The notes beneath the pieces were generated by a model. That model saw only the letters and a list, made by a program, of their open reading frames with translations, was not told the DNA's origin and made no database searches. A stretch of DNA of 64,000 nt from Terriglobales bacterium (GTDB taxonomy: Bacteria > Acidobacteriota > Terriglobia > Terriglobales > Acidobacteriaceae), in NCBI GenBank assembly GCA_035632335.1, contig DASQHA010000244.1, positions 16,335 through 80,334 on the forward strand, in the 5' to 3' direction. Below are positions 7,347-29,842 of this stretch, piece after piece (position 1 is the stretch's first letter; each line of letters begins with the position of its first letter). The translations under genes were made by a program, and so were the position numbers.

Positions 7347-8615
7347 TCAATTGATCTTCTCCTCAGGGGGTCGGAGCGCTATGAATCCTCGATACAGCGA
7401 CAGGTCGTAGACGATCTTCAGAGTTCCCGCGACGAAGAATGGCAAGCTGATCAGCGAAGGGCGCGCGAACATAAACCCGACAAACACTGGCGCGATAGAA
7501 GCACCGATGGTTCGGGCGACGCCCGTTACGCCAGCCGCGGCTGACCGTTCTTCGGGGTGAACAACGGCCATGGTGTATGACTGTCTGGTCGGCACGTCCA
7601 TTTGGCTGATACTGAATCGTAGCAGCAGAACGAAGATTGCTAGCGGGAGAGTCGGCATCAGGGGAACGGCAATGAGCAGGACATTTGAAGGAAGATGTGT
7701 GAAAACCATCGTCTTCACCAGACCAAACCGTGTTGCGAGCCGGGAGGCCAATAATGCGGACACTCCCGCAAATACATTTGCCCCAAAGAAGATCGCCCCA
7801 AGGGTCGCAGGATTGACACCAAACCGGAGGTAAAACCAGTAGGCCGCGAAGCTCTGAGCCACAAAGCCACCTGCGAACGAGTCCAGGGCGAACAGGGCAG
7901 ATAGCCTCAGCACCACGTCGCGTGAGCGAGCAACGCCAAAGGAAGCTTTCCCAGCAGCGTGAGAGGGGAATTCTCCAGCCGCTCTTACTTCCACGGCAGT
8001 TGAAAGGCGCGTGAAGAAGAGCGCCAGCAGGATGCCTACCACGGCGTAAAGAATGACCACAGTGCGGTAGCTTGCGGCGGGCGTCATTGCGGTTCGTCGC
8101 AGCATGCTGGGAAGAAGTCCGCCACAAAACGAACCGATGGCGGTGGCAAAGGAGCCTGCCAACGTGTACCAGGCGAACACTGTGGTCCTGGTCCGGTTGG
8201 ACACCACACGAGAGAGCGCGGCCTGTTCAATCGATAGGAATGGTCCCACTTCGTTGCCACTCGGGCTGATCACTCCAATCGTCCCCGCAATCGTCAACGC
8301 CAAGAGGCTGGAAGTGGAGGCGAAGGTCAGACCAGCGCCAGCCATGAGGACAGCGCCAATGATCAGCATGCGCCGGCGTCCGATCCGGTCCGCCCAGGTC
8401 GTCAGAAAGAGGGAGACGAAAGTATCGCCGACGAGCGTCAGAGTGAGAAGCATCCCCGTTTGGGACTCGCTCAACCCAAGGCTGGTCAGATAGAGGACCA
8501 ACACGACGGATAATGCGCCGTAAGCGAACAAGCGCGTGAATCGCGTGACGAACAACAGCCATCCGTCACGCGTCAGGTGCTTGAGCGGATTGTCCTTCAA
8601 GGCGCCAGCCAGCAT
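7347..8615 (-). CDS. MFS transporter
   Basis: 422 aa and about 12 hydrophobic spans. MFS motif A-like WADRIGRRRMLIIGA. Confidence 0.85.
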   Translation of the reverse strand: MLAGALKDNPLKHLTRDGWLLFVTRFTRLFAYGALSVVLVLYLTSLGLSESQTGMLLTLTLVGDTFVSLFLTTWADRIGRRRMLIIGAVLMAGAGLTFASTSSLLALTIAGTIGVISPSGNEVGPFLSIEQAALSRVVSNRTRTTVFAWYTLAGSFATAIGSFCGGLLPSMLRRTAMTPAASYRTVVILYAVVGILLALFFTRLSTAVEVRAAGEFPSHAAGKASFGVARSRDVVLRLSALFALDSFAGGFVAQSFAAYWFYLRFGVNPATLGAIFFGANVFAGVSALLASRLATRFGLVKTMVFTHLPSNVLLIAVPLMPTLPLAIFVLLLRFSISQMDVPTRQSYTMAVVHPEERSAAAGVTGVARTIGASIAPVFVGFMFARPSLISLPFFVAGTLKIVYDLSLYRGFIALRPPEEKIN

Positions 8616-8624
8616 CCGAGCTCG

Positions 8625-9905
8625 CTAGTACATAACATTCCAGATAATCTGCAGCCTGGTGTTCAAGAGATCATCGTTGTGCGAGACGCGATTCTTGAAC
8701 TGGTAGTCCAAGCCGATTCTGGATTTCTCTCCAAGGTATCGGAAGTACCCCAAATTGACAGCGCGGAGGTTCTGGCCAGACACCAGATCCCGATTGAACT
8801 GGTCGTAGCGCCAATAGACTTGATCTTGATGCGCAAGACGGAAGCTGGAGAAAACGGAGCCGCCCGCGGAGTGGGCCCCTGGACTGAAGCGAGGGGCGAA
8901 CTCCGGCTCCAGACCGAGAAGCGTGGAGGGCATGTTGCCGGCGACGAACTCGGCGCGGACACCAAGTCGTTTCCAGGCCCATTGAACATCGACACCGTAA
9001 AGATTCTCCCGGTTGTTGCCACGCGTACCCTCCGGCAGGAGCTGCCGTCCTAGCTGCGCCGACGCGCCGATCGCCAGGGGTAGCCGATCGAAGACCTTGC
9101 GAACCCTTAGATCGTAGTTCAGTTGCCGGTTGTTGTCGGTAAAGAAGCGATTCCCGTTGAAAGCTCCGGCGAAGAGCTGAGTGCCATGCCAGAAGCCGCC
9201 CAAGCGATCCAGTTTTGTGGTCACCATCAACCCGCGGTCCCTTTGGCCCGGAAACAAATAGCCAGCAAAAATGCCGCGCTCCGGCGATTCCCGAACGCTC
9301 GACGACTGCTGGATATCGAACCCAAACGGCTTGACGAACTGGCCAGTGCGGATGGTGACAGCATCGTTAGCATAGTATTCAACAAAGGCATCATTGACCA
9401 ATTCGACAGCGGCTCCTGCGGGGGCAGGATGGTACTGAATCTCAAATCCCATCCCGATCTTGTCGGAAATCCGCCCGGACCACCGCGATTCCATCCGTGT
9501 CAAAACAAAGTTCGAGGGCGCGCTCTGCTGAGTGCCTCCCGAGATCGGGAGCGCCTGGAACCGCGACTGAATGAACAACTCTGGACGGGCCGCCAGGCCC
9601 GATTCCCGCTCGTCCTGGGCGAGGTCAGGGCGCAGGATTTGCTCCCGGAAGGCAGTGGCGGCATCCTCGACTGGCGCCGGCGGAGCGGGGAGCACGGAGA
9701 TTGATGCAGTTGAGGTCGTACCGGGTTGCCGCAGCATTTGCACTTCAGACGTTAACCCTTCGATCGTTTTCTGAAGAGCCGCAACGCTGTTCCTGGCTTC
9801 GGCAAGCTTTCGTTCGAGGTCGGCGATGCGTTCGTCTCGATCCTGCCCGCTCACGGCTAACGGAAGGATACCAACGGCAAGAAGAAGCACCAGAATTCGA
9901 TTCAT
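8625..9905 (-). CDS. outer-membrane porin-like beta-barrel with N-terminal coiled coil
   Basis: Signal peptide MNRILVLLLAVGILPLAVSG, a coiled-coil stretch (IADLERKLAEARNSVAALQKTIEGL), then alternating beta-strand-like sequence ending in an aromatic residue (..IWNVMY). ATG 9905 overlaps the upstream stop (ATGA). Confidence 0.55.
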   Translation of the reverse strand: MNRILVLLLAVGILPLAVSGQDRDERIADLERKLAEARNSVAALQKTIEGLTSEVQMLRQPGTTSTASISVLPAPPAPVEDAATAFREQILRPDLAQDERESGLAARPELFIQSRFQALPISGGTQQSAPSNFVLTRMESRWSGRISDKIGMGFEIQYHPAPAGAAVELVNDAFVEYYANDAVTIRTGQFVKPFGFDIQQSSSVRESPERGIFAGYLFPGQRDRGLMVTTKLDRLGGFWHGTQLFAGAFNGNRFFTDNNRQLNYDLRVRKVFDRLPLAIGASAQLGRQLLPEGTRGNNRENLYGVDVQWAWKRLGVRAEFVAGNMPSTLLGLEPEFAPRFSPGAHSAGGSVFSSFRLAHQDQVYWRYDQFNRDLVSGQNLRAVNLGYFRYLGEKSRIGLDYQFKNRVSHNDDLLNTRLQIIWNVMY

Positions 9906-10324
9906 GTTGCAACTCGCTTGTTGCACTCGGCAAATAGCGCATCGTAAACAATGAATTCTTGCGCGAGGATGTCGCGATCGGCTAGGCCAAGCGCACTGAA
10001 ACCGTGCGCGATCCAGCGAAGACCTTCGCCCGCGGGGTGCGGGTTACTCGGGTGGGAGTCGGCTGCGCGAACGATCTGCGCCAGAAGCGCGAGAGCCAAG
10101 TCTGTCAGCTCGTACTTTCTCAGGATCGCGTCGAATGAAACTTCTTCGCCGTGATGTCCGAGTTCACAGCCGGGAACATCATAGACAATCCCATCCTGAA
10201 TGCTTGCCCAGTCGGTGTCGTGGGGAAGAAAAATGAATTCCGCATCCGGATCGACGAACTTCTTGATGAGCCAGGGGCAGGCTACTCGATCAACCTTGAC
10301 TCTTTCTCTGGTGATCCACTTCAT
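9902..10324 (-). CDS. ChrB C-terminal (chromate resistance) domain protein
   Basis: N-terminus MKWITRERVKVDRVACPWLIKKFVDPDAEFIFLP...ELGHHGEEVSFDAILRKY matches my memory of the Chrome_Resist/ChrB_C family. ATGA overlaps at both ends. Confidence 0.7.
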   Translation of the reverse strand: MKWITRERVKVDRVACPWLIKKFVDPDAEFIFLPHDTDWASIQDGIVYDVPGCELGHHGEEVSFDAILRKYELTDLALALLAQIVRAADSHPSNPHPAGEGLRWIAHGFSALGLADRDILAQEFIVYDALFAECNKRVAT

Positions 10325-10983
10325 ACTGAGACCTCCTTGCCCTCTCGCAGCAGAAGTGCTCTGGTTCCGATTCTCCTCACCTCTTCCGTGCTATGCGTGA
10401 CATAGACGAGTGTGAATGCGAGTTGAGAATGCAAATCCAGGAGATGGCCGCAGAGCTCGTCTTTCAAGTCGTCATCGAGGTTGGAAAGGGGCTCGTCCAT
10501 CAGGAGCGCCAGTGGTTGCGCAACCAAGGCTCGGGCGATGGCGACCCGTTGCTGCTGACCTCCGGACAGACGTGCCGGATACGTCCCACTGAACTCATCG
10601 AGCCGAACGTGTGTCAGCACTTCGCCGATCCGCTGCTTGCGAACGCCCGCAATGAGGCCCTGTGTTTTCAAAGCAAATTCGAGGTTCTGATAGACGGTTA
10701 GATGCGGCCATAGTGCAAGGTCCTGGAAAACCATTCCCAATCTCCTAGACTCCGGGCCGACGTGGATCTTCCCTTTACTCGCAACTTCCTGGCCGCCGAT
10801 TCGAATCGCGCCTTCGTCGGGAGCGAGAAAGCCCGCCAATAAGCGAAGAACTGTCGTCTTCCCACAACCCGATGGGCCGTGGATCGTGATTCTCTCTCCT
10901 TCTTCGATTTGGAACGAAAGATGAGAGACAACAGTGCGGTCGCCATACCTCTTCGAGACTTCCTGAAATTCGATTGCGCTCAT
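10321..10983 (-). CDS. ABC transporter ATP-binding protein
   Basis: Walker A GPSGCGKTT, signature LSGGQQQRVAIARAL, Walker B LLMDEPLSNLD. Start set at ATG 10983 (MSAIEFQEV...), which overlaps the permease stop (ATGA). The 91 upstream codons of the ORF track are not protein-like. Confidence 0.9.
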   Translation of the reverse strand: MSAIEFQEVSKRYGDRTVVSHLSFQIEEGERITIHGPSGCGKTTVLRLLAGFLAPDEGAIRIGGQEVASKGKIHVGPESRRLGMVFQDLALWPHLTVYQNLEFALKTQGLIAGVRKQRIGEVLTHVRLDEFSGTYPARLSGGQQQRVAIARALVAQPLALLMDEPLSNLDDDLKDELCGHLLDLHSQLAFTLVYVTHSTEEVRRIGTRALLLREGKEVSV

Positions 10984-12581
10984 ACCGGCTTGCTCCAAAC
11001 ACGCCACGCCACTCCCAGCGCGCCGAGCGGCAAGAGAGCTAGTAAGACGGCGAGCACACAGAGAGCCGCAATCAGTTCCGGCGAACCGTTGGCCATCAAA
11101 GTCATGGTGCGGGCGGTGAGCGTATCGCGACCGGGAGGCGCCACCAGAAGAGGAAGGGCGACGTCTCGTAGACAGAAGACAAAAGTGACAGCCCACGCCG
11201 CCACCAGCACTGGCCGCACGACAGGCGCTAGAATCCCGAACACCCGGCGGAACCACCCCACCCCGGCTACTTCCGCAGCTTCCTCCAGAGAAGGAGACAC
11301 TTGGGAAAAACCAGCCACAACAATGCGGACGCTAAGTGCAGCGTACTGCGCGACAAAACCGATAAGGAGAATCGCCGGCGTCGCATAGATCCAGTTCGTG
11401 GATGCATGATTCCACAATGCGATCAGTCCGATGGCGATGACCGTCCCTGGAAGCGTGAACAAGAAAAGGGTGAGCGTGTCCAGCCACCACCAGCCCGGTA
11501 GAGAGCGCCTGTGTACCACATAAGCGAGGAAGAATCCGAGCACGCAAAGCACACTGGCCGAAACACCTGCGTAGAGGACACTCCGCATCGCACTGCCCCC
11601 AGCCCGCTGGACAGCGTCGCTGAGCGCGTTGATCGACGAGCCACGCCAGAGGACGCCGCCGAGAGGCATCCCGACCAGGATGACCGCCAGCGCGATCACC
11701 GCGAGAAGCACAAGCGGCTTTTTTCGCCCCAAAGGAATTCGTTCAAAGGCTGGTTGACCTCCCCACCGAAACGAATATGTCTTTCGATGAAGAACGCTCT
11801 CGATGGCGAGCAGTCCCGCAAATACCACTGCGATCATAGGCATTGCCGCCGCAGTTGCGGCGCCGAAGTTGTAGAAGGCCGACGACTGCGTGAAACTTGC
11901 GACCGGGAACACACTGAGACGCAGAAACGCGGGCGCGCCAAACTCTCCCATGCTCAAGAGGAAGACCAAGACCAGCGACAGCACGATGCCTGGCATGATG
12001 AGAGGTATCGTGATCCGCCTGATCACGTCAGGCCAGCCACACGATATTCGTCCGGCTTCTTCAAGACTGGGATTCAGGCCTTGCAAATAGGTGATCGTGA
12101 GCAGCAGTACGATCGGCAGGAAGGCCGACGCGAGCACCAGCACAGCGCCGGGCAGCCCGAACAGCCACCGCGAAGTCGTTTCGCCGGCCGCCAGCCCGAT
12201 CCAGCGAGTCAAGATTCCCCCACGACCGAGGATCTCGAACCAGCCCACGGCGAGGATGTAAGGCGGAAAGAGCAAAGGCAAAGAGAAAATCACTGCAAGA
12301 GAGCTGCTCAACGGGAGATCTGTCCTCGCCACGAGGATGCCCAGCGCCACTCCGGCCAGCCCGGCAACGGCCGTCGTCAAGGTGGCAAGCAACAGGCTGT
12401 TGCGAAACAAGACCCAGGTCCGCGCGTTGCCGAGCACTTCCACGTAGTTCCTTACGCTAAAGCCGCCGTCCACCCACAAGCTGGAACCAATCATCAAGCA
12501 GAGCGGGAGCAAGCCGACGACGCCGAAGACCAAGGCGGCTGCGACAAGCGTGGTCCGTTTTGCGTTCAGTAGCCCACCCAT
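10980..12581 (-). CDS. ABC transporter permease, two-domain Fe(III)/FbpB-like
   Basis: 533 aa and about 12 TM spans in two homologous halves, as in iron(III)-type importer permeases. Confidence 0.8.
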   Translation of the reverse strand: MGGLLNAKRTTLVAAALVFGVVGLLPLCLMIGSSLWVDGGFSVRNYVEVLGNARTWVLFRNSLLLATLTTAVAGLAGVALGILVARTDLPLSSSLAVIFSLPLLFPPYILAVGWFEILGRGGILTRWIGLAAGETTSRWLFGLPGAVLVLASAFLPIVLLLTITYLQGLNPSLEEAGRISCGWPDVIRRITIPLIMPGIVLSLVLVFLLSMGEFGAPAFLRLSVFPVASFTQSSAFYNFGAATAAAMPMIAVVFAGLLAIESVLHRKTYSFRWGGQPAFERIPLGRKKPLVLLAVIALAVILVGMPLGGVLWRGSSINALSDAVQRAGGSAMRSVLYAGVSASVLCVLGFFLAYVVHRRSLPGWWWLDTLTLFLFTLPGTVIAIGLIALWNHASTNWIYATPAILLIGFVAQYAALSVRIVVAGFSQVSPSLEEAAEVAGVGWFRRVFGILAPVVRPVLVAAWAVTFVFCLRDVALPLLVAPPGRDTLTARTMTLMANGSPELIAALCVLAVLLALLPLGALGVAWRVWSKPV

Positions 12582-13582
12582 TGTTTGAGAATTGGCTGAA
12601 TGGCTTGGAGCTTGGTGCCGAGATCTGCGTAATTGACCCTCATCGTCTTGATCTGCTCAATCGGCTTGATCTCTTTCGGCGTTGCCACGCCGGGGTGCAA
12701 TGGGATTTGGGCACAGTCCGCAAACGCCAGCTTGCGTTCGGTCTCCTTCGAGACCAGGTACTCGATCAGCTTTTTCCCGTTATCCGCGTTCGGCCCGCCA
12801 CGAATCAGAGCGACAGCGTTCGGGAGGATCAATACCCCTACTTCACCTTCGCCCTGGTCGGGATAAACGATTTCCAGGGGCTTGCCATGGCGGAGGCGGT
12901 CGACAGCATCATCACTATCGACGAGCGCAAACTCGAACTCACCCGAAGCGACGAAATCGGCACTCTCCCCATTGCTTCCCGCAAGCTTCACCTTGTTTGC
13001 CTTCAGTCCGTCCAAAAACTGCTTGCCCTTTTGGTCGCCCCACACCGAGAACAAGGCGGCCATCTGAGCAGTTGTAGTCCCGAACAACGGATTGGCGATG
13101 ACGCCTTTGCCCTTTGTTTTGGGATCCCCATAGTCGAGTACGCTGGTGGGTTTGTTGCTGGCACTTTTGTTAACCACCAACAAACGCGCGCGCGCGGAGA
13201 AGCCAGTCCAGTAACCTTGTGGGTCCTTGAACTGATCTGGGATCTGCTCAGCACTCGCCGGACGGAACGGTGCCGAAATCCCCTGCTGGCGGAGGACATC
13301 CGCGCGGACTGGCTCGTTCGCCCAGTAGACATCGGCCTGAGGGTTGTTCTTCTCGGCCAACAAGCGGTTCATGACCCCCGTGCTCTTGGCCTCTTCGGTA
13401 TCGAATACCGCGTTGACCTTGATGCCCGTCTCGCGTTCGAAGTCCCTCAGGATCGGTTCAGAGAAGACCTGGTCTTCGCTGACGTAGACGGTAACCGTGT
13501 TTGTCCGGGTGGTGCTGCACCCCGCCAGCGCCAATCCGGCGGCCACCAGCCAAACCACCCGGCTCACTGTGCGACCCGCCAT
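12566..13582 (-). CDS. periplasmic substrate-binding lipoprotein, Fe(III)/FbpA-IdiA-like
   Basis: Lipobox LALAGC after start ATG 13582. Family-1 solute-binding-protein pattern (VTVYVSEDQVF..PIL..FE..TGIKV..., DVYWANEP). The antisense ORF 12560..13645 is a shadow. Confidence 0.8.
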   Translation of the reverse strand: MAGRTVSRVVWLVAAGLALAGCSTTRTNTVTVYVSEDQVFSEPILRDFERETGIKVNAVFDTEEAKSTGVMNRLLAEKNNPQADVYWANEPVRADVLRQQGISAPFRPASAEQIPDQFKDPQGYWTGFSARARLLVVNKSASNKPTSVLDYGDPKTKGKGVIANPLFGTTTAQMAALFSVWGDQKGKQFLDGLKANKVKLAGSNGESADFVASGEFEFALVDSDDAVDRLRHGKPLEIVYPDQGEGEVGVLILPNAVALIRGGPNADNGKKLIEYLVSKETERKLAFADCAQIPLHPGVATPKEIKPIEQIKTMRVNYADLGTKLQAIQPILKQWVGY

Positions 13583-14790
13583 GGTGAGAACTGCGGCCAA
13601 GTCTTTAGTGCATCCGTGGCCCATTGGACGGTCTTATCCGTGTGACACGAATTGCAAGAATTCGGGACCTTTAGCGTTTCCGTCGCGGAAGGCGGAATGA
13701 ATTTGAACGTATGGCTCCGAATATTGATGTCAGCGATCTGCAGCTCGATCTTCGGCATGTGGCACGCCACACAGTCGTTGCCGGCGGAGCCAGCCTGGTG
13801 ATGAGTGTGTTGTTCGATAGTCGCGGCGCGAGGCCCATTCGGTGAGTTCGGCCCGTGGCATTGGAGGCACATGACGCTTGCGGGTTTCAAAAGTAAGGCG
13901 TTGTTTTCAGTCCCATGCACATCGTGACAATTGAAGCACTTCACCCCGTGCGTGTACATGACGCTGGTAACGAAGTCATTGCCTTGCATGCGATTCTTGT
14001 GTGCTGTTCCATCCGCGAAATGCGTGAACGTCGTCTCGCCCAGGTTGTGCGGTTCCAATTTCCAGAAGTTCTTGAGATCCAGGCCCACATGGAATCCCAC
14101 CGGCCAGTCGTACTGCTTCCCCTCGATCGGGTTTGTGAGTGGCCGGCCTTGAGAGTGGCATTGAATGCAGACGTTGTTGGCCTGAACATAATCCAAACGC
14201 GCAGGATTCACAATGTTGGCCCGTGACGGCCGCCGCACATGTTCGCTTCCGGGGCCATGGCACTTCTCGCAGCCCACATTCCATTCCGTGACGGTCTTCG
14301 TTTGGATGTTGTAGTTCACGGCATGGCAGCCGTCACAGAGTGGGCCAGTCGGGCGTGCAGAGACTTCCTGTGGGTAGAGTTTGCTCCACCAATCCGACAC
14401 AGTCGTTATGTTGTATGCACGCCAGACTTGGTGACTCACATCCCACTGCGCGCCCAGAGGGAAGTAGTCATCACCGACCTTCTGAAAGTATCGCTGCTTC
14501 CATTTGGTCCCATACACTTGTGCAATGTCCTCGAGCTTAAAGGTCAGCAGCGGGTCGGCCTTGGTGAGATCAGGGAGGATAACCTCCGGGTGAGCCGTCG
14601 GATCGGTCACGACGTTCGCCATCCGCGTCTTGGTCCAGCGTTCGTACTTCTCGGAATGGCAAGTCTTGCAGGCGGTTGAGCCTACGTATGTGGCGGACAG
14701 CCCTTGAGGTGGGCTCACTGGCTGCGCGTAGAGAGTCGTCGACAACGCAGCCACACTGGCGCTGCAAAGGAATTTTCGAATTATGCTCAT
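13564..14790 (-). CDS. octaheme c-type cytochrome, secreted
   Basis: Eight CXXCH motifs: CKTCH, CDGCH, CEKCH, CIQCH, CFNCH, CLQCH, CVACH, CNSCH. Signal peptide MSIIRKFLCSASVAALSTTLYA. ATG 14790 is preceded by AGGAG. Confidence 0.9.
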   Translation of the reverse strand: MSIIRKFLCSASVAALSTTLYAQPVSPPQGLSATYVGSTACKTCHSEKYERWTKTRMANVVTDPTAHPEVILPDLTKADPLLTFKLEDIAQVYGTKWKQRYFQKVGDDYFPLGAQWDVSHQVWRAYNITTVSDWWSKLYPQEVSARPTGPLCDGCHAVNYNIQTKTVTEWNVGCEKCHGPGSEHVRRPSRANIVNPARLDYVQANNVCIQCHSQGRPLTNPIEGKQYDWPVGFHVGLDLKNFWKLEPHNLGETTFTHFADGTAHKNRMQGNDFVTSVMYTHGVKCFNCHDVHGTENNALLLKPASVMCLQCHGPNSPNGPRAATIEQHTHHQAGSAGNDCVACHMPKIELQIADINIRSHTFKFIPPSATETLKVPNSCNSCHTDKTVQWATDALKTWPQFSPWRVAQ

Positions 14791-14800
14791 GGTAACGCTC

Positions 14801-15124
14801 CTAGATGTTTTGCCAACTACAACCTGGTTTTCGTCTTTCGCAACTGGTTCCCGGCGGAGCCGTCCGTCGCGAAGGATCACCCTGCGGAACGGCGTCGCAG
14901 GAGGTAAGGGCGTGGCGACGGAAGTAGCGAAGCGAACCCTTGCCGCCGAGCACCGTTCTGCGAACAGACGCCCGACTGACGGACGGCGCAGTGGGAACCA
15001 GATGTCTGGATTGCAGCTTTCCACGTTTGCAGGTACCTGCGACTGGTTTTGCAGGCACCTGGGACTGCGCGGAAGCCGCCAATCCAAGCGCAAGTGTCAA
15101 AACAAAAGATTGCCAAGTTCTCAT
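14801..15124 (-). CDS. candidate small secreted basic Cys-containing protein (107 aa)
   Basis: Its ATG overlaps the stop of the upstream cytochrome gene (ATGA). N-terminus MRTWQSFVLTLALGLAASA-QS looks like a Sec signal. The stop TAG is embedded in the AGGAG of the next gene. The mature part is unusually Arg-rich, so coding status is uncertain. Confidence 0.3.
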   Translation of the reverse strand: MRTWQSFVLTLALGLAASAQSQVPAKPVAGTCKRGKLQSRHLVPTAPSVSRASVRRTVLGGKGSLRYFRRHALTSCDAVPQGDPSRRTAPPGTSCERRKPGCSWQNI

Positions 15125-17333: not shown

Positions 17334-17366
17334 AACTACCTCTTTGAACGACTTCTGAAGCGACCA

Positions 17367-21400: not shown

Positions 21401-21615
21401 AGGAAGTGATATTCGTAGTAATAGGTGAGATAACCTTCCATTTGAGAAGGATCCATTCCGCCATAGGGCTGCGCCACGTAAATTGCGGGCGCTCCCAGTT
21501 GCGGGAAAATGTCGACCTTCATCCCGCGGATGGCCAGCCAGGAGGCAAGGGCGACCGTCAGGACGGCCACCAAAATCGTGATCGGCCGTCGCATTGCGGT
21601 GTGTACAAGCCACAT
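18454..21615 (-). CDS. RND efflux transporter, inner-membrane permease
   Basis: 1053 aa with AcrB/CzcA-type 12-TM architecture and two large periplasmic loops. Confidence 0.95.
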
Positions 21616-21632
21616 AGTTCAAATCCTCTCTC

Positions 21633-23006
21633 TTACTTGAGTGTCTGCTGCACAAACGGCTGCACGTCGCCGGCAGCGACGGCAGCTCGCAGCAGAGCAC
21701 GCCATACGCCTAGCTTCGCCAAAGCATCGTCGATCTCCGCTTGCGTCAAGATACGATCTGCTTCAGCGACTTCCACGATATTGCCAAGCCCGGTCCGGTA
21801 CCGGGCGGTTGCTTGCTGTTCCGTCACGCGAGCCGATTCAAGCTCTATGGGGGTGTTCTGAGACACCCGTTGCGCTCCGACCAGGGTGGCCCGCGCACTT
21901 TCCACTTGGCCGGTCACGTCTTGAAGAATCTGGTCGTAGCGAGCCACCTCGGTACGCTCGTTGTGCGTTTCTATCTGTTTGCGTACCCGGATCGAGGCGA
22001 TGTCGAAGATCGGAAACGTAACGGTCATTCCGAGACCCCAGTTCTGAATGTTCGGCCCAAGTCCGCTCACGGGGTTCCCGGTATCGCCATTGGGCTGAAT
22101 ACCGGTGCCGCGTGCGTAAATGGTTCCCTGCAGGTAGAAGCGCGGGAAATACGACCGGTCGAGAGCCTTCTCTCGCGATTTGACTTCTTCAATCGCTAGA
22201 TTCTGTGCGACTGCCACAGGGTGATTGGAGGCGGTTAAGGCCGCGATCTGTTGGTCGCTCGGCAGATTCAGAAGTGGACCCGATTCAATGTTGATGGTTT
22301 GAGGCGGGACTCCCAGCACTTGCCCTAGCGCCGCGCGGCCAACCTCGACAGCCGCCTCGGCCTGAATGAGCTGAGTCTGCGCCAGTGCAAGTTCCGCTCG
22401 AGTCCGGGAGGCGTCGGCCCCGGGACGCAATTGGTTCTTGACCAGCGTTTCAACGGTCTGATTCAGGACTGTTGCGCGATCGACACCAGCCCTCGCGGCA
22501 GTCACAGTCTGCTGGGCGGCAAGGATGGTAAGAAACGCGTCTGCGGCCGCTGCCGCGACTTGCAGCTTGGTGACATTGACTTGGGCGTTCAGTTGTTCCC
22601 GAACGGAGGTCGCGGCCTTCACGTTTGCTTGCCGCAAACCGAAGTCGAAGGGTTCCCATGTAACCGTGCCGCCGATCGCCGTCCCCCACACATTTCCGAG
22701 CCCATTGGTGCCTAGAACAGGCCCGGATATGGAAGGGAGGACCGGCTGAGGAAGAAGCATCCCGAAGACGTTGTTGTGGGTCGCACGGTTCACTTGGGCA
22801 AGGGCGTCCGCTCTGGGGAGATAGGCGGTGCGGGCCAAGTTGATTCCTTCCGCTGCAGCCGACACCTGCTCGAGGGAGCTTCGAATAGCGGGATATTTCT
22901 GGACCGCCGCATCCACGGCCTGCCCTAACGTCAGCGGGGGCGTCTGCGCCGCGGTAAAATCCATAATCAAGAACGCAGACATTACCACTCCGGTTACGAT
23001 CCTCAC
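21633..23006 (-). CDS. TolC-family outer-membrane efflux protein
   Basis: 457 aa with two OEP repeats (LTLGQAVDAAV...). GTG start at 23006 is preceded by GGAGAA. Confidence 0.9.
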   Translation of the reverse strand: MRIVTGVVMSAFLIMDFTAAQTPPLTLGQAVDAAVQKYPAIRSSLEQVSAAAEGINLARTAYLPRADALAQVNRATHNNVFGMLLPQPVLPSISGPVLGTNGLGNVWGTAIGGTVTWEPFDFGLRQANVKAATSVREQLNAQVNVTKLQVAAAAADAFLTILAAQQTVTAARAGVDRATVLNQTVETLVKNQLRPGADASRTRAELALAQTQLIQAEAAVEVGRAALGQVLGVPPQTINIESGPLLNLPSDQQIAALTASNHPVAVAQNLAIEEVKSREKALDRSYFPRFYLQGTIYARGTGIQPNGDTGNPVSGLGPNIQNWGLGMTVTFPIFDIASIRVRKQIETHNERTEVARYDQILQDVTGQVESARATLVGAQRVSQNTPIELESARVTEQQATARYRTGLGNIVEVAEADRILTQAEIDDALAKLGVWRALLRAAVAAGDVQPFVQQTLK

Positions 23007-23057
23007 GCTGTGTTTTTCTCCTCGATCATGAGCTTGACCTCTTTGTTTCTAAAACTT

Positions 23058-24263
23058 TCAATGATGTAGCACCAGGCCCACGACTGCTGCCATGAGAATC
23101 AGCGCCGGTTCAGGAACCTTCTTGAACGTGATCAATACGGTCAGAACGATGAGCGCTATCGCCACCGTGGCAAGGTCGACAAGCGCTCGCTTGGCGAGAA
23201 TTACGGCTGCCCCAGCGATGGCGCCGACTGCCGCGGCAGTCACGCCCTGAACGAATGCCTTGACCTGCCGGTTACTCGCGAACCGCCGATAATAAGGAGC
23301 GGCCAAAATGACGATGAGAAACGGAGGAGCGAAGACAGCGACGGCTGCGGCTGTCCCTCCAAGGAATCCGGCCACGAGGTAGCCAATGAACGCCGCGGTG
23401 ATGACCACTGGTCCCGGAGTGATCATGGCCACGGCCACGGCGTCCAAGAACTGCTGTTCCGTGAGCCAGTGGAACTGGCTCACGACCCCGCCGTAGAGAA
23501 ATGGCACGATGGCCAAGCCACTGCCAAACACAAACGCTCCCGCCTTCAAGAAGAAAAAAGAGAGGCTCCACAGCAGGCCCGCCGAGGCCGTCCCCTTCGC
23601 GCCGGTGATCAGAAAACCGAAGCCGCCTGCGACTGATGGGGCAACGGGCTTCGATAGGAATGTAGGTGTCGCCTTGACGAGAACAGATACCACGCCACAC
23701 AAGACGAACAGCCACACAATCTCCGAACCTGTCCATACAGTCGTGACCGCGACGCTTGCGAAAACAAGCCAGAGGAATAGATCTTTGCCCAGGGTCTTTC
23801 GAGAGAGCCGGAACGCGCTTTGGCCGATGATCGCAATCACTGCAGCGCCGATGCCGTAGAACATTCCCTGAATCCAGGAGAGCTGGCCGAAGTGCACGTA
23901 AGTGGCGGCCAGGGCCACTGCCATCAAGAACGAGGGCAGGATGAATGCCGCGCTTACGACGGCCGCGCCGAAACGCCCTGCGCGCACCCACCCCAAGTAC
24001 ATCGCCAACTGGGCTGCCAAAGGTCCAGGAGAAAGCTGTGAAAAAGCCAAACCCTCAACATAGTCCTGTCGTGAGACCCAGCCTCGCTCTTCGACCAGAT
24101 CTTTCTCCATCCGCGCAGCAAGCACGATAGGGCCGCCAAAACCGAATGTTCCCAATCGAACAAAATACTGCAGGAAGTCACGCAACGAACATGGAACGGC
24201 AGCCCTCTCCGTCGAAAGAGCAGAGCTCATCGTTGCCGTCGTTTGGTTTGCTCTGTTTTCCAT
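23058..24263 (-). CDS. chrA: chromate ion transporter (CHR family, two-domain)
   Basis: 401 aa. Motifs FGFGGPIV...LAFSQLSPGP in the first half and ITPGPVVITAAFIGY in the second half. Confidence 0.9.
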   Translation of the reverse strand: MENRANQTTATMSSALSTERAAVPCSLRDFLQYFVRLGTFGFGGPIVLAARMEKDLVEERGWVSRQDYVEGLAFSQLSPGPLAAQLAMYLGWVRAGRFGAAVVSAAFILPSFLMAVALAATYVHFGQLSWIQGMFYGIGAAVIAIIGQSAFRLSRKTLGKDLFLWLVFASVAVTTVWTGSEIVWLFVLCGVVSVLVKATPTFLSKPVAPSVAGGFGFLITGAKGTASAGLLWSLSFFFLKAGAFVFGSGLAIVPFLYGGVVSQFHWLTEQQFLDAVAVAMITPGPVVITAAFIGYLVAGFLGGTAAAVAVFAPPFLIVILAAPYYRRFASNRQVKAFVQGVTAAAVGAIAGAAVILAKRALVDLATVAIALIVLTVLITFKKVPEPALILMAAVVGLVLHH

Positions 24264-24301
24264 TCAAAGAAATTTCGGCACAGGGGTGTCCCACCGTGTG
24301 A

Positions 24302-24329
24302 ATCGGCGGAACCCAATGAGTCCGCCGAT
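24302..24329 (-). other. perfect 9-bp stem-loop in intergenic spacer
   Basis: ATCGGCGGA (24302-24310) and TCCGCCGAT (24321-24329) with a 10-nt loop, between the stop of 24343..24702 and the start of chrA. There is no U-tract, so it is more likely a processing or stability element than a terminator. Confidence 0.4.
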
Positions 24330-24342
24330 CAGCACAACGGGT

Positions 24343-24702
24343 CTACTGCACGGACTTAACGAACAGCATTTTCGTTCCGCCCTTCGTCACAAGTGTTCCT
24401 GTCACGGTGACCTGTTCGCTCATCTTGTTGAGCAGTAGATCGCGAGCGGGTTGATGATCCTGGAGCCCCGCCGTGAGATAGATGTCTCCTTTCGCGTCGA
24501 CGATGCCAATCGGGTTTCCAGCCTTGGCACACATCGTGGCGCAAGCCTTGTGGGTTGGTCCATGATCGCCGCCTTCCATGAAGCACCACATGTCGACGGC
24601 TTCGCCTTTTACAGTCACGGTCGGTCCCTTCGGTTCTGCTAGCCCAATGAGTGCGGTCAAGAGGACCATCGCCACACTCAGACCAAGAGTCTGTCGCTTC
24701 AT
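24343..24702 (-). CDS. small secreted protein with His/Cys/Met cluster (candidate metal-binding)
   Basis: Signal peptide MKRQTLGLSVAMVLLTALIGLA. The mature part contains WCFMEGGDHGPTHKACATMC. No named family recognised. Confidence 0.7.
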   Translation of the reverse strand: MKRQTLGLSVAMVLLTALIGLAEPKGPTVTVKGEAVDMWCFMEGGDHGPTHKACATMCAKAGNPIGIVDAKGDIYLTAGLQDHQPARDLLLNKMSEQVTVTGTLVTKGGTKMLFVKSVQ

Positions 24703-24765
24703 ATATAGTTCTCCTTTAGTTCTAGTTCTCGCTTTTTGAGACCCATTCGATCGATTCGCAGCGGG

Positions 24766-25743
24766 CTAATGGGATGCTTTGCCCTTGCCCAACTCGTTCA
24801 GCGCGGCTTTGAATCCAGTGGCAAGCTTCTCGGCCGGACCTGTTCCCCAGTAGTGCAGGAAATAAATGGCCGGCTGAGTGCCTGTCATGTGGTGGTGGAT
24901 CGCAACCACGTTTAGGCCGTTCGCGCGCAGTGCCTTTAGAACAGGAGTGACTTCGTTGGACAGCATGGCAACATCGCCGGCGACCTCCGCGTTCGCATCG
25001 CTGCCGTAAAACGCGGCCCAGGTGTTCAGGCCCATTCGCGAATTAATCAGAGCGCCCATTTCCTTGAGTTTCAGATCGTCTCGACCGACCGTGATCTTGT
25101 ACACTGCTCCGTTCTGCTCACCGTCGTGGCCGGCGATCTTAGCGAGTTTTGCCGTGTCCATTTGTCCGGCTGTGACGTTAGAGGCCGCGCCGGTTATCGA
25201 GCTTTGATGCTGTGCCGGGCCCTTGCCAATCAGGTCCACGGCGGGCTTGGCCATTTTCGCCAGATCGGCGGCCTTCCCGTGACCGTGCACATGCATGTAG
25301 AAGATGCGCGGGCTTTCAAAGAAAAAGTGATTGTGGACGGCCGTTACCTCGAGTCCGTTATCGAGCAGCGCGGACATGACTGGATTCACCTCGTCTTCTT
25401 GAAGCACAAGGTCGCCCATCATTACGTCCATTCCACCGTCGCCCTTGGTCATCGCCAGCCATCCTCCAAAGCCGAAGGGTGTCGGGGTTGCGATGCCATC
25501 GATGGTGACCTTCAGGTCGTTCCGAGGGATATTGAGCTTTAGGACTCCGTCTTTGAAGTCCCCTGTTTTGCCGAGGGTTTTCATCGCGGCATCGTACTCC
25601 GGCGGCATCTGCTGCGCATAGGCCGCAAACATCGTCATCGAGCCCGCCATGAGCGCCATGGCTCCCAGCCGGCGTACGGTTCGGTTCAATCGTGTATTCA
25701 TCGGTTTTACTCCTTCTTGAGTTTTGCTGTTTATGCCAATCAT
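24766..25743 (-). CDS. LppY/LpqO-like family protein (paralog of 16407..17333)
   Basis: Two repeats (GGWLAMTKGDGGMDVMMGDLVLQEDEVNPVMSALLDNGLEVTAVHNH... and NTWAAFYGSD...GDVAMLSNEVTPVLKALRANGLNVVAIHHH). ATG 25743 overlaps the kinase stop (ATGA). An alternative ATG at 25701 is preceded by AAGGAG. Confidence 0.7.
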   Translation of the reverse strand: MIGINSKTQEGVKPMNTRLNRTVRRLGAMALMAGSMTMFAAYAQQMPPEYDAAMKTLGKTGDFKDGVLKLNIPRNDLKVTIDGIATPTPFGFGGWLAMTKGDGGMDVMMGDLVLQEDEVNPVMSALLDNGLEVTAVHNHFFFESPRIFYMHVHGHGKAADLAKMAKPAVDLIGKGPAQHQSSITGAASNVTAGQMDTAKLAKIAGHDGEQNGAVYKITVGRDDLKLKEMGALINSRMGLNTWAAFYGSDANAEVAGDVAMLSNEVTPVLKALRANGLNVVAIHHHMTGTQPAIYFLHYWGTGPAEKLATGFKAALNELGKGKASH

Positions 25744-27194
25744 GACTCCACAACTTCCTTTTCGGGCATCGAGCTCGTGCCCGGTGCCCGACTGACGTCA
25801 ATGGCGGGCAACGTAATCCGGAAAGTGCTGCCCCGATCCGTCTCCGAGAAAAGCTCAATACTCCCTCCATGAGCTTCTACTGCCCAGCGCGCAATCGAGA
25901 GTCCGAGTCCCGAACCGCCAGCATCCCGCGATCGAGCTTTATCCACACGGTAAAATCGATCGAACACCTTGTCGCGATGCTCGGGCGGAATCCCCGGACC
26001 ACTGTCGATGACGTCGAGGAAGCAACGATCGCTTTGTCTCTCCACTCGCACTCTGACTGAACCGCCCACGGGTGAGTACTTGACGGCGTTGTCGATAACA
26101 TTCATCACTGCATGCCGGAGGATCAAACGGTCTGCCAGCACTACGGCGGAATCGTCTCCCTCGACAGTCAAATGCTGGGCTTTTTCGTCGGCCAGATCCT
26201 CAAGCAAAGCGGCGGCGTCTCTTGCCAAGTCCCGCAGTCGCAGTGGAGAACACTCTAGTTGAACGTGACCTGCATCCGCACGCGAGATAGTCAATAGATT
26301 CTCAACCATTGAAGTCAGCCTGTTTGCCTCCTCGAGCATGCTGCCAATGATCTCGCGGTAGTGTTGCGCATCCCCGTCCTTTTGCATACCGACCCAACCG
26401 ACGCTGCGAATTGCGGTCAGAGGTGTTCTGAGTTCGTGCGAAGCGTCTGCCGTGAATCGCCGAAGCCTCTCGAAAGACTGCTCCAGCCTGGCGAGCGTAT
26501 TATTGAAGATTCGCGCCAGGTGACCCAGTTCGTCATCAGGGTTTTCAACCGGTAGGCGCTCGTTCAGGCGCTCAGCGGTGATCTCTTCGGCTCTCGCCGC
26601 CATCGCGCCCAGGGGAGCTAAGAAGCGCTTGGCAAGCCCAAATGCAACAAACCCGGCGATGACGAGAACGATGGGGAAGGCCGCCAGAACGGCCCATGCC
26701 GATTCCCGGATATCGTTCCACAGACGTTCCTCGCTCGAAGCAAGGCGGATCAAAACAGGGTGAGATTCGACGAAATCAACACGGCTCGCCAGCCGAATTC
26801 TTGTCCCGTCCGGCAAGGCCGAGGATCGAGGTGAGTAGCCGTATGCGCCCTCGCCCGGGGTTGGCATTCCATCCAGTTGCGCGCCAGCGAGGCTATGATT
26901 GCGATACAAAAGCGCACCGTCTAACTCGCGAATTTCAAGGTAGGGTTCCGCTGTCCGGTCGGGGTCAGTGTGATCGCTAGCTTGCCCGACTTCGAGCTTC
27001 CCATCGGGACCGAAGCTCAGCCCTTGTTCTACGCTCTCGATCTGGTCCGCCAGCTCGCGGTCCAACTCGCGCCTCAAATTAAAAAACAAGAAGCCCGCCG
27101 CCGCCGCAATGAACAGCGCCAATATACCCCCGAGGAGCACAAGATACCAGAGCGTGAGGCGGGTTCTGACGTGCTTTGGCCGAAGGCGCATCAT
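25740..27194 (-). CDS. sensor histidine kinase, heavy-metal (CusS/CzcS)-like
   Basis: RTRLTLWY N-terminus, two TM segments plus a periplasmic loop, HAMP, H-box ADASHELRTPLTAI, and G-boxes DSGPGIPPEHRDKVFDRFYR / GGSGLGLSIA. Confidence 0.9.
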   Translation of the reverse strand: MMRLRPKHVRTRLTLWYLVLLGGILALFIAAAAGFLFFNLRRELDRELADQIESVEQGLSFGPDGKLEVGQASDHTDPDRTAEPYLEIRELDGALLYRNHSLAGAQLDGMPTPGEGAYGYSPRSSALPDGTRIRLASRVDFVESHPVLIRLASSEERLWNDIRESAWAVLAAFPIVLVIAGFVAFGLAKRFLAPLGAMAARAEEITAERLNERLPVENPDDELGHLARIFNNTLARLEQSFERLRRFTADASHELRTPLTAIRSVGWVGMQKDGDAQHYREIIGSMLEEANRLTSMVENLLTISRADAGHVQLECSPLRLRDLARDAAALLEDLADEKAQHLTVEGDDSAVVLADRLILRHAVMNVIDNAVKYSPVGGSVRVRVERQSDRCFLDVIDSGPGIPPEHRDKVFDRFYRVDKARSRDAGGSGLGLSIARWAVEAHGGSIELFSETDRGSTFRITLPAIDVSRAPGTSSMPEKEVVES

Positions 27195-27874
27195 TCAGCA
27201 CCGTCCTTGAGAACAAAGCCAACTCCTCGCACCGTGTGAAGCAGCTTGGTCTGGAACGGATCGTCCAATTTGCGCCTCAGCCTCGCAATGTTTACGTCGA
27301 TGACGTTGTCGAGCGGCGTGTGTCGAGGGCCTTCCTTCCAGACATCATGGGCGATCATTTCGCGTGAGATCACGCGCCCCTGATTCCGCACAAGGTATGC
27401 GAGCAAGTCGAACTCGCGGGCGGTCAGATCCAGCGTTTGTTGAATGCGCGTAGCCGTGCGCGTCGTCACGTCCATTTCGAGATCCGCGATCTTCATCCGG
27501 ACCGGTGCATCCAGGCGCCCCCGGCGGAGAAGCGCGCGAACGCGCGCAAGCAATTCGGGAAACTCGAACGGCTTGACGAGGTAGTCGTCCGCGCCGGTAT
27601 CCAGACCCAACACCCGATCATTAACGGAGTCCCTCGCCGTCAGCAGCAGGACTGGTAGCTGCGAGTTCGCCTTGCGAATAGCCCCCAAGATCTCGAACCC
27701 GTCCCGGCCTGGAAGCATCACGTCCAGAATCACGAGATCGAAAATCTGGGCATTGAACAGAAAAAAGCCTTCCTCGCCTGTGTGGGCCAGCGTCACCTGG
27801 TACTGTTCCGCTTCTAGTCCCTCGCGCAATGCATTGGCCACTTTTCTTTCGTCTTCGACGACCAGAATGCGCAC
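27191..27874 (-). CDS. OmpR/CusR-family response regulator
   Basis: Receiver domain (MRILVVEDE...DLVILDVMLPG...) plus winged-helix domain (LTAREFDLLAYL...TVRGVGFVL). GTG 27874 is preceded by GGAGG. Confidence 0.95.
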   Translation of the reverse strand: MRILVVEDERKVANALREGLEAEQYQVTLAHTGEEGFFLFNAQIFDLVILDVMLPGRDGFEILGAIRKANSQLPVLLLTARDSVNDRVLGLDTGADDYLVKPFEFPELLARVRALLRRGRLDAPVRMKIADLEMDVTTRTATRIQQTLDLTAREFDLLAYLVRNQGRVISREMIAHDVWKEGPRHTPLDNVIDVNIARLRRKLDDPFQTKLLHTVRGVGFVLKDGAE

Positions 27875-29820: not shown

Positions 29821-29842
29821 TTATTTTGCAGACACTACACTA

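Follow-up and report, generated by a model that had tools for sequence, protein, structure and literature searches.

A 64-kb window of a metagenome-assembled genome (MAG) from an uncultured soil member of the Terriglobales (Acidobacteriota), by which we mean the whole stretch of DNA analysed, contains an array of about 20 kb in which minus-strand genes run from position 27874 to position 7347. In this order, the genes encode a two-component system (TCS) made up of a response regulator (RR) and a histidine kinase (HK), a first protein of the DUF1259 family (DUF1259a), a 119-residue orphan protein (small119), ChrA, a pump consisting of an outer membrane factor (OMF), a resistance-nodulation-division (RND) protein and a membrane fusion protein (MFP), a second DUF1259 protein (DUF1259b), a pentahaem and an octahaem cytochrome (cyt5 and cyt8), the substrate-binding protein (SBP), permease and ATPase of an ATP-binding cassette (ABC) importer, a stand-alone ChrB_C protein, a porin, and a major facilitator superfamily (MFS) transporter. 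The array appears to represent a modular, TCS-headed envelope defence against chromate-type oxidizing oxyanions that includes their reduction in the periplasm, a reading that we place just on the probable side of even. Read in this manner, the finding would be an expanded chr determinant whose chief product is cyt5 as a testable candidate for a periplasmic reductase dedicated to chromate.

The cyt5 gene (15121-16410) encodes a secreted c-type cytochrome with a signal peptide, five CxxCH motifs, and no conserved cysteines besides the ten that bind haem. Orthologues are 55-70% identical over no fewer than eight phyla, and homologues with 55-82% identity are found among the Acidobacteriota, Desulfobacterota (Geobacteraceae, Desulfarculales), Myxococcota (Anaeromyxobacter), Planctomycetota (Brocadiaceae), Armatimonadota, Nitrospirota, and a few Proteobacteria, and these proteins are currently labelled as 'hypothetical' or as generic cytochromes. 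When a cyt5 profile was compared with 1.84 billion representative proteins, about three full-length clusters (formed at 50% identity) scored above 460 bits, after which the scores fall to ~110 bits. This drop indicates that cyt5 is a tight orthologous group within a wider pentahaem superfamily. No Pfam or NCBIfam model of a characterized cytochrome family passes its cut-off on cyt5. A search of 72,556 plasmids likewise returned no match to cyt5, and thus there is no evidence for a plasmid-borne cluster. Orthologues with 55-57% identity are also present in aerobic Proteobacteria, specifically Paraburkholderia ultramafica LMG 28614 (locus L066) and a Caenispirillum bisanense MAG (L080). The former species is named for ultramafic (Cr/Ni-rich) soil, and its locus has no chr genes within 10 kb of cyt5.

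Even the closest solved structures are remote from cyt5, namely the pentahaem cytochrome c552 of Thermochromatium tepidum (PDB 5ze8, E 2.7e-4) and MccSep/ExtKL (E 0.03-0.04). MccSep/ExtKL is a pentahaem selenoprotein and polysulfide reductase (PDB 9wt8) in which the loop carrying the catalytic selenocysteine (Sec325) lies beside haem 2, and Cys239 serves as a haem ligand (bioRxiv 10.1101/2025.11.18.688581). With these two proteins cyt5 shares a length of ~420 residues, five CxxCH motifs, a C-terminal immunoglobulin (Ig)-like domain, and a GH-x-x-P-x-G loop, which in cyt5 is found within that domain as the invariant sequence GHSVPTGSNRR. Unlike in MccSep, the cyt5 loop continues with the invariant Asn-Arg-Arg, and the genomic context consists of chr genes rather than ext clusters. 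Membership of cyt5 in the MccSep/ExtKL group was considered and rejected. A weak HMMER alignment (2.9 bits for the loop segment) places Ser305 of cyt5 at the position of Sec325 and Thr215 at that of the haem-ligating Cys239, no additional invariant cysteine exists, and model NF040886 yields 35 bits against a cut-off of 250. Because both defining residues are replaced, cyt5 is not an MccSep. Nevertheless, cyt5 probably shares the enzyme-like architecture of MccSep, and the Ser-Asn-Arg-Arg loop would suit an anionic substrate. An AlphaFold2 model built from a 23-sequence alignment has a mean predicted local distance difference test (pLDDT) score of 48 and is confident only in the C-terminal β-sandwich, and a Foldseek search of the PDB with this model was uninformative, returning only generic Ig-like sandwiches.

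The genomic context of cyt5 and of other array genes was examined in ~170 related loci, which were collected by using two independent anchors, cyt5 itself and the SBP family. For the cyt5 anchor, 80 genome loci with 10-kb flanks were searched with the proteins of the window. At least one chr-type gene (ChrA, ChrB or DUF1259) is present near cyt5 in 38 of these 80 loci, with ChrA found in 29, a ChrB_C-domain gene in 27, and DUF1259 in 12. Orthologues of the importer components also recur (SBP in 17 loci, permease in 15, ATPase in 13), as does an RR with at least 55% identity (13 loci). The remaining components are seldom neighbours of cyt5: cyt8, the porin and the MFS transporter each occur in one locus of the 80, and an RND protein with at least 35% identity occurs in none.

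Full-length ChrB is encoded beside cyt5 in 13 loci, and in at least five of these it lies directly upstream. The most compact arrangements come from Geobacteraceae/Deltaproteobacteria MAGs. In one of these (L012, Geobacteraceae), chrB (5330-6319) overlaps cyt5 (6316-7596) by 4 nt and is followed by DUF1259 (7662-8567) and chrA (8542-9750), and in another (L006) the order is chrB–cyt5–chrA. Clustering of the neighbouring genes revealed additional recurrent companions of cyt5, including a ChrC-like gene with a C-terminal Fe/Mn superoxide dismutase (SOD) domain, an outer-membrane barrel of ~250 residues (Phenol_MetA_deg) that is often encoded directly downstream, a DUF1080 protein of ~235 residues, and a YncE/YVTN propeller of ~337 residues, with intact YncE-type propellers present in the clusters of L009, L050, and L082. 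The acidobacterial locus L082 carries on a single strand the order RR-HK-DUF1080-cyt5-barrel-propeller-SBP-permease-ATPase-DUF5818-ChrB-ChrB_C-MFS-DUF1259-ChrA, which is the core of the window without the RND pump or cyt8.

The TCS at the head of the array comprises an OmpR-family RR (27191-27874; Pfam Response_reg and Trans_reg_C) and an HK with HAMP-HisKA-HATPase_c architecture (25740-27194) whose gene has an ATGA overlap at either end. For both proteins the best-scoring NCBIfam families are of the heavy-metal class and fall below their cut-offs (TIGR01387 for RR, 254.4 versus 279.2 bits; TIGR01386 for HK, 289.3 versus 292.55 bits), which suggests a sensor system of the CopR/CusR/CzcR class. 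The RR is 60-67% identical to those encoded beside cyt5 in Geobacteraceae and Anaeromyxobacter, compared to 48% for the second RR of the window. An alignment of the periplasmic sensor domains of HK orthologues revealed no conservation and no conserved His, Cys or Met ligands.

A candidate operator for RR is located at 27920-27959 on the minus strand, 46-85 nt ahead of the start codon of RR. It has the form CTGAC-N6-GTCAG-N7-GTCAGG-N5-GTAAGG, with (G/T)TCAG repeats spaced by ~11 bp. A strict composite motif (CTGAM-N6-KTCAG-N6/7-KTCAG) has 16 sites in 1.42 Mb, of which 14 are positioned just upstream of RR orthologues or cyt5. The other two are in the window, one within the candidate operator (27932-27959, 58-85 nt upstream of RR) and one upstream of a second TCS (58123-58149). 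The operator lies directly upstream of cyt5 in L010 and in the gap between the divergent RR and cyt5 genes in Anaeromyxobacter, and variants of it are found ahead of RR in the acidobacterial loci L082, L167, and L168. Binding of RR to this (G/T)TCAG operator is inferred from these patterns. The 10-mer AAACGTMAGG was rejected in favour of the composite motif on account of its lack of enrichment (9 matches versus 5.6 expected). No further copy of the operator exists inside the 20-kb array, and so the only recognizable regulated promoter is at the array head. This lends modest support to read-through that extends from RR to cyt5 or beyond.

The second operator in the window heads a paralogous cluster (~50779-58149) that encodes RR2 (57318-57995, 48% identical to the RR of the array), HK2, a β-propeller, a DUF1080 protein (54201-54821), another β-propeller, and two proteins of unknown function. 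The DUF1080 protein is 42-54% identical to the commonest neighbour of cyt5, and the other β-propeller is 75% identical to the product of a gene beside the TCS in L085. It appears that parts found together with cyt5 in other genomes are split here over two operator-bearing arrays.

The importer consists of a lipoprotein SBP with the FbpA fold (12566-13624; Pfam and profile match), a fused two-domain permease of 533 residues that resembles FbpB/PhnU2 (10980-12581; BPD_transp_1 twice, NCBIfam), and an ATPase of 220 residues (10321-10983) that has ATGA overlaps at both ends and lacks a C-terminal regulatory domain. The first-pass annotation considered the SBP to be of the Fe(III) type and suggested that iron uptake accompanies the proposed metal or oxyanion efflux. 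The fold and the fused double permease are indeed those of ferric transporters, with a profile match of E 2e-39 to the ferric-binding protein 7w3w. However, comparison with 1d9v and 7w3w demonstrates that all four FbpA iron ligands are replaced (His9 by Asp, Glu57 by Asn, and Tyr195/196 by Asp/Asp). An acidic D-[ST]-D-D motif stands in place of the Tyr-Tyr pair without variation in 19 SBP orthologues. Iron uptake is therefore unsupported, and the ligand is predicted not to be Fe(III) bound in the canonical manner. FbpA-fold proteins recovered in the same search are also named as binding pyridoxal-5-phosphate or 2-aminoethylphosphonate, and AfuA (4r72-4r75, deposited as 'ABC-type Fe3+ transport system') is reported to bind hexose phosphates. 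The SBP subfamily is abundant in soil metagenomes (at least 551 confirmed matches), where its members would be mis-annotated as ferric-iron transporters.

To sample the importer independently of cyt5, 80 metagenome loci were picked via the SBP family. DUF1259 is present in 29 of these, ChrB_C in 23, and ChrA in 16, such that 38 carry at least one of the three; among the 42 loci of at least 6 kb, the number is 28. None of the 80 contains cyt5. The importer is thus a chr-associated module in its own right that is separable from cyt5. Of the 21 cyt5-sampled loci with an importer, 18 also carry a ChrB_C gene. The ChrB_C gene follows the ATPase gene in L086, L087, L088, and L009. In the window, the stand-alone cytoplasmic ChrB_C protein (9902-10324, 140 residues; PF09828, 141 bits) is encoded by a gene that overlaps the stop codon of the ATPase gene, whose product has no TOBE-type regulatory domain. 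This arrangement might mean that ChrB_C is a detachable, oxyanion-sensing regulatory subunit of the TOBE-less ATPase.

Long arrays of similar content occur in acidobacterial relatives. In L088, the order DUF1080–DUF1259a–OMF–RND–MFP–DUF1259b–cyt8–SBP–permease–ATPase–ChrB_C–MFS is retained with proteins 50-85% identical to those of the window. Shorter segments are seen in L087 (MFP–DUF1259b–SBP–permease–ATPase–ChrB_C), L086 (DUF1259a–cyt8–SBP–permease–ATPase–ChrB_C, followed by a porin remnant), and L168 (RR–HK–small119–OMF–RND–MFP–DUF1259–cyt8). The most extensive example is a 42.5-kb contig (L167/L169) with the order RR–HK–small119–DUF1259–ChrA–LMWPc–OMF–RND–MFP–DUF1259–189-residue protein–ModA-type SBP–permease/ATPase–cyt8–cyt5 (55% identity), after which come a divergent HK-RR pair, a 373-residue protein, DUF1080, ChrB_C, SBP, permease, and ATPase. 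The upper half of the array in the window was also found on a Logan contig. These orders point to a backbone of TCS–small119–RND–DUF1259b–cyt8–ABC–ChrB_C(–MFS), to which ChrA/DUF1259a, cyt5, and the porin would be cassettes that are gained or lost. The functional linkage of chr genes, multihaem cytochromes, and an importer proposed in the first-pass annotation, which would be contradicted by scattering of the orthologues in relatives, is supported by the frequency of chr-type genes near cyt5, by the chr linkage of the importer, and by the preservation of the long array.

On the L167/L169 contig, positions 6918-9547 of L169 encode an oxyanion-binding protein of the ModA type (SBP_bac_11) together with a fused permease-ATPase, and an LMWPc (ArsC/LMW-phosphatase-like) gene is present among the same modules at 12597-13076 of L167. 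Both would fit the oxyanion theme.

Several other products of the array contribute to its interpretation. ChrA (23058-24263) belongs to the long-chain CHR family (PF02417 twice, 269.6 bits) and passes the chromate-efflux model TIGR00937 (357.5 bits versus a cut-off of 171.7). No array gene product contains ChrB_N according to Pfam, and full-length ChrB is absent from the window. The secreted DUF1259a (24766-25743; LppY/LpqO, ChrL-type; PF07485, 260 bits) and DUF1259b (16407-17333) are only 27% identical. The former retains His-rich motifs (HNHFF…HVHGHG and HHHM…HYWG) that are lost in the latter, which suggests distinct roles for the two copies. No relative of DUF1259 was found in the PDB. DUF1259b follows the MFP gene in L087, L088, L167, and L168. 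The secreted small119 (24343-24702) has a positive coding score and 305 homologues with 63-94% identity, matches no Pfam model, and exhibits no convincing similarity to the DUF5818 protein of L082; in L167 and L168 its gene comes after the RR-HK pair. The sequences of both DUF1259a and small119 have a high content of His, Cys, and Met.

The pump includes a TolC-like OMF (21633-23006; PF02321 OEP twice), the RND inner-membrane protein (18454-21615; ACR_tran, 616 bits), and an MFP (17367-18467; HlyD_D23; TIGR01730, 194 bits versus a cut-off of 95). The RND protein scores below all NCBIfam cut-offs, with its best result on a multidrug model (524 of the 1250 bits needed) and a lower one on the CusA/CzcA model TIGR00914 (368.4 versus 701.45). 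The genes are in the unusual order OMF–RND–MFP, which is shared with L088, L167, and L168, and the last 14 nt of the RND gene also belong to the MFP gene. In L088, the orthologous OMF occupies the same position with 66% identity, and the RND orthologue is 62% identical.

The second cytochrome, cyt8 (13564-14790), is secreted and carries eight CxxCH motifs; its true start is MSIIRKF rather than the TTG at 15093. It aligns with the N-terminal 200 residues of PDB entry 6i5b (E 4.9e-26), which we take to be the nonahaem cytochrome OcwA of Thermincola potens (the entry is deposited as 'Uncharacterized protein'). In contrast to OcwA, cyt8 has eight haems and 408 residues, is periplasmic in a Gram-negative organism, and is part of a very large soil-metagenome family. 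Matches numbered 6727 among the 8000 candidates scored, with ~70% identity among the best 120, and these define an unnamed octahaem family. The cyt8 gene adjoins the SBP gene in L086, L088, and L115, and adjoins cyt5 in L169 as well as in the window. In L085, cyt8 follows DUF1080 beside a divergent TCS and so takes the position that cyt5 has in L082, by which the two cytochromes look interchangeable in the TCS/DUF1080 context.

The last two genes of the array encode a porin of the OprO/P type, an anion-selective family, with an N-terminal coiled coil (8625-9905; Porin_O_P, 23.9 bits versus a cut-off of 20.9), and an MFS transporter (7347-8615; MFS_1). A porin orthologue with 54% identity is encoded beside ChrA in L009, and only a remnant is present in L086. 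Orthologues of the MFS gene follow ChrB_C in L018 and L088 (63-66% identity) and in L082 (39%). An extracellular conduit of the Mtr/Pcc type was considered and rejected. The porin belongs to the OprO/P family and is encoded six genes away from the cytochromes, there is no third, lipoprotein cytochrome, and matches to MtrC domains are faint.

Gene calls relied on a listing of open reading frames (ORFs), on Pfam and NCBIfam models, and on codon-usage log-odds. The first-pass annotation described 18 co-directional genes, and 17 of these are real, on the minus strand, and in the order given. The exception is a small ORF of 107 codons between the two cytochrome genes (14801-15124). Read in its own frame, it has a log-odds value of -0.144, and none of the frames across this region is positive, whereas all 17 real genes score positive. 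Moreover, it has no Pfam match and no homologue in 85 related loci, and the gene upstream of cyt8 in the close relative L086 is a DUF1259a orthologue. Each of the seven positions listed as stop/start overlaps does read ATGA on the minus strand, but with this ORF rejected the array comprises 17 genes with six meaningful overlaps. The spacers were described as very short, which holds for gaps of up to 79 nt, including those of 51-79 nt around small119, ChrA, and OMF. It does not hold for the 330-nt non-coding spacer (14791-15120) that is left at the cyt5/cyt8 junction, which is the only gap big enough for an obvious internal promoter.

A search of the whole window with Rfam models, including this spacer, gave no match. 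A hairpin with a T-tract after the cyt5 stop codon does not exceed shuffled sequence in stability (z = 0.65), and scans with consensus Sigma-70 promoters and terminators found sites no commoner than in shuffles. The lone minus-strand promoter-like site from the consensus scan abuts the cyt8 start codon. A shared orientation alone carries little weight, because the minus strand holds 35 of the 44 long ORFs in the window. The ATGA overlaps and the short remaining gaps favour coupling of the array genes. A single 20.5-kb transcript cannot be shown from sequence, and the 330-nt gap and the shuffled gene orders speak against one. The array probably comprises two or more transcription units, such as RR to cyt5 and cyt8 to MFS.

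Portions of this layout resemble known systems. The chromate resistance determinant (CRD) of Arthrobacter sp. FB24 includes chrA, chrB-Nterm, chrB-Cterm, chrJ, chrK, and chrL, all of which are induced by chromate; chrL encodes an LppY/LpqO (DUF1259) lipoprotein, chrJ an oxidoreductase, and chrK a secreted YVTN propeller of 344 residues (PMC2751784). The layout of the window had been described as unlike any recognized chr, czc or cus locus, but the combination of ChrA, LppY/LpqO, and ChrB_C was already known from FB24 (PMC2751784). The additions of cytochromes, importer, TCS, and RND pump are undescribed in the literature that we found. In common with the FB24 determinant, the window has ChrA, a stand-alone ChrB_C, DUF1259 (here in two copies), a redox enzyme, and a YVTN propeller that survives as a remnant disrupted by an insertion sequence (IS) of the IS630 family. 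The array differs in belonging to a Gram-negative envelope, in having a TCS at its head instead of ChrB-Nterm, and in its redox partner, where two periplasmic multihaem cytochromes take the place of an Mqo-like flavoenzyme. It further adds the tripartite RND pump, an anion-type porin, the MFS transporter, the FbpA-fold importer, and the second DUF1259 protein.

Compared to the chrBAC(F) type of operon, relatives of the window likewise have full-length chrB directly upstream and a ChrC-like SOD gene nearby. They insert the pentahaem cytochrome between chrB and chrA, whereas the window lacks both full-length ChrB and the SOD gene. In the chrBACF/chrBAC operons of Ochrobactrum tritici TnOtChr and Cupriavidus metallidurans, as in the window, ChrA is the exporter. 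These operons are cited in PMC2755013 and PMC2751784. The pairing of an OmpR/EnvZ-class TCS of apparent heavy-metal type with OMF, RND, and MFP is reminiscent of cus and czc systems (cusRS–cusCFBA, czcCBA-RS). However, the RND protein of the window fails the CusA/CzcA model, the pump genes are in the order OMF–RND–MFP, no CusF-type chaperone is encoded, and chr genes lie between the TCS and the pump. Similarly, the importer shares with FbpABC/HitABC the FbpA fold of the SBP, the fusion of two permease domains, and the presence of one ATPase gene, but differs from these in its lack of iron ligands and of a C-terminal ATPase regulatory domain and in its ChrB_C/DUF1259 companions. Literature searches on chr genes combined with c-type or multihaem cytochromes, and on DUF1259, found no description of a cytochrome within chr operons. 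The occurrence of cyt5 within chrB…chrA operons, a chr module built on an FbpA-fold importer, the TCS with a conserved operator, and the fusion with an RND pump are all undescribed in the literature found.

These features can be assembled into a plausible mechanism. The CopS/CusS-class kinase would sense a periplasmic signal, upon which RR would bind the repeats at 27920-27959, whose conservation is described above, and drive transcription from its own gene onward. ChrA, in keeping with the activity known for its family, would export chromate from the cytoplasm. In the periplasm, cyt5 together with the OcwA-like cyt8 would reduce the oxyanion with electrons from the periplasmic cytochrome/quinol pool. 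The RND pump and the OprO/P-family porin could conceivably carry the substrate or product across the outer membrane. Finally, the FbpA-fold importer, the stand-alone ChrB_C, and the DUF1259 proteins may serve to import a solute that is in short supply under stress. Within this scheme, cyt5 is a candidate periplasmic oxyanion (chromate) reductase. A more ambitious and decidedly tentative proposal, which we think somewhat unlikely, is that cyt5 is the founding member of a family of dedicated periplasmic Cr(VI) reductases in a 'sense–export–reduce' resistance operon of anaerobes and soil bacteria from many phyla, co-inherited with chrB/chrA or with the TCS and TCAG operator. In that case, haem 2 and the Ser-Asn-Arg-Arg loop would form an active site in which the loop binds a tetrahedral oxyanion.

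A number of observations weigh against the reading of the array as a chromate-type defence. The choice of chromate as the substrate derives only from association with chr-family genes, and the window itself is without full-length ChrB. ChrA is not part of the backbone, being absent from the related arrays L088 and L168. In 33 of the 80 cyt5 loci, the 10 kb on either side of cyt5 contain no chr, ABC or TCS gene, which together with the absence of cyt5 from the importer loci indicates that the modules are separable. The TCS comes closest to a class that senses metal cations and has a sensor domain without conservation, the RND pump passes no NCBIfam subtype model, and the array encodes no quinol dehydrogenase of the NapC/CymA type as an electron donor. 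The 330-nt gap and the shuffled gene orders also disfavour a single obligatory transcript. With regard to cyt5, the alignment with the MccSep loop is weak, and its haem domain is poorly modelled.

One alternative holds that the array is a chance juxtaposition in which independent operons (TCS with chr genes, RND pump, cytochromes, ABC importer, and porin with MFS) lie head-to-tail without a shared function. The strand bias of the window, the gap at the cyt5/cyt8 junction, the 51-79-nt gaps around small119, ChrA, and OMF, and the shuffling of gene order among relatives are all consistent with this possibility, as is the fact that RND, cyt8, and the porin are not neighbours of cyt5 outside the Acidobacteriota. 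Yet the same families are found together in ~170 loci from many phyla by way of two independent anchors, and the six translationally coupled ATGA junctions span module borders, for example HK/DUF1259a, DUF1259b/cyt5, ATPase/ChrB_C, and ChrB_C/porin. In addition, the long TCS–RND–DUF1259–cytochrome–ABC–ChrB_C order is kept at 50-85% identity and recurs in L167-L169, making a chance assembly improbable. A similarly low probability is assigned to homeostasis of metal cations (Cu/Ag/Zn-type), in which a CusRS/CzcRS-like TCS would run the RND exporter, the cytochromes, DUF1259, and small119 would act as metal redox or chaperone factors, and the chr genes would be accessory. The scores of RR (254/279 bits) and HK (289/293 bits) just below heavy-metal cut-offs, the CzcB/CusB-type domains of the MFP, and the His/Cys/Met-rich DUF1259a and small119 speak for such a role, as does the backbone of the relatives, where TCS–small119–RND at times occurs without ChrA. 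The RND protein itself, however, fails the CusA/CzcA model (368 versus 701 bits) and scores higher on multidrug models, and no genes of the CusF, CopC or P-type ATPase type were found in the array. The constant companions are the chr-associated families DUF1259 and ChrB_C and an anion-type porin, one relative has a ModA-type SBP and an LMWPc/ArsC-like gene, and other phyla flank cyt5 with chrB and chrA rather than cation pumps.

Two further explanations assign different substrates to the cytochromes and importer. Chromate is a sulfate analogue, and cyt5 and cyt8 could instead act on sulfur or selenium species (oxyanions or polysulfide) while ChrA and the importer move sulfate-like anions. This would agree with the distant similarity that cyt5 bears to MccSep/ExtKL, which reduces polysulfide and selenite, and to pentahaem c552 from a purple sulfur bacterium. 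It would also agree with the location of DsrE, cysteine desulfurase, and rhodanese genes next to cyt5 in L084 and of a rhodanese gene in L167. Such sulfur genes are present in a couple of loci only, though, and cyt5 has Ser and Thr in place of the Sec/Cys325 and Cys239 of MccSep. Moreover, ChrA passes the chromate-efflux model, and ChrB, the ChrC-like SOD, and ChrK/ChrL-type genes are chromate-specific associates, leaving this explanation distinctly unlikely. Least probable of all, and in our estimate very improbable, is reductive iron acquisition, whereby the cytochromes would reduce Fe(III) for uptake by an FbpABC-type importer and a YncE-like propeller. Although ferric-binding proteins are the nearest structural relatives of the SBP (E 2e-39), the fused permease resembles FbpB, and YncE-type propellers recur in cyt5 clusters, the replacement of all four FbpA ligands and the invariant D-[ST]-D-D of 19 orthologues are difficult to reconcile with iron binding. 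Some FbpA-fold relatives bear non-iron names (pyridoxal-5-phosphate, 2-aminoethylphosphonate), and neither Fur-type nor siderophore genes were seen in the array.

Current understanding attributes chromate resistance chiefly to efflux by ChrA and to promiscuous flavin reductases in the cytoplasm. To our knowledge, it is an open question if bacteria possess a dedicated reductase with a genetic link to resistance, and we know of c-type cytochromes reducing Cr(VI) only as a side activity. The locus described here nominates a sharply delimited and highly conserved pentahaem family that is encoded between chrB and chrA or under a conserved TCS operator, and the presence of cyt5 in cultured strains of Geobacteraceae and Anaeromyxobacter makes the question directly testable. 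The cultured carriers include Geomesophilobacter sediminis Red875 (L021, with the order RR-HK-cyt5-DUF1080-DUF1259-ChrA), Anaeromyxobacter terrae SG22 (L034/L035), and Geotalea sp. SG265 (L018), in all of which the cluster is simpler than in the window. It also indicates that an importer easily misread as an iron transporter belongs to the chr neighbourhood, and that Acidobacteria build such modules into long recombining arrays. These observations are relevant to the bioremediation of Cr(VI) and to the annotation of thousands of 'hypothetical cytochrome' genes in soil metagenomes.

The propeller remnant noted above lies just upstream of the array. It derives from a ChrK-like secreted YVTN/YncE β-propeller encoded on the minus strand, which survives in two pieces (28247-28644 and ~29838-29873) split by the IS630-family element. 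The N-terminus, MKTSIVPTIVLV, is on one side of the element and ~135 residues are on the other, and the 3′ end of the gene is truncated as well. The element itself (28645-29843) has terminal inverted repeats of 31 nt and carries its transposase on the plus strand in two frames.

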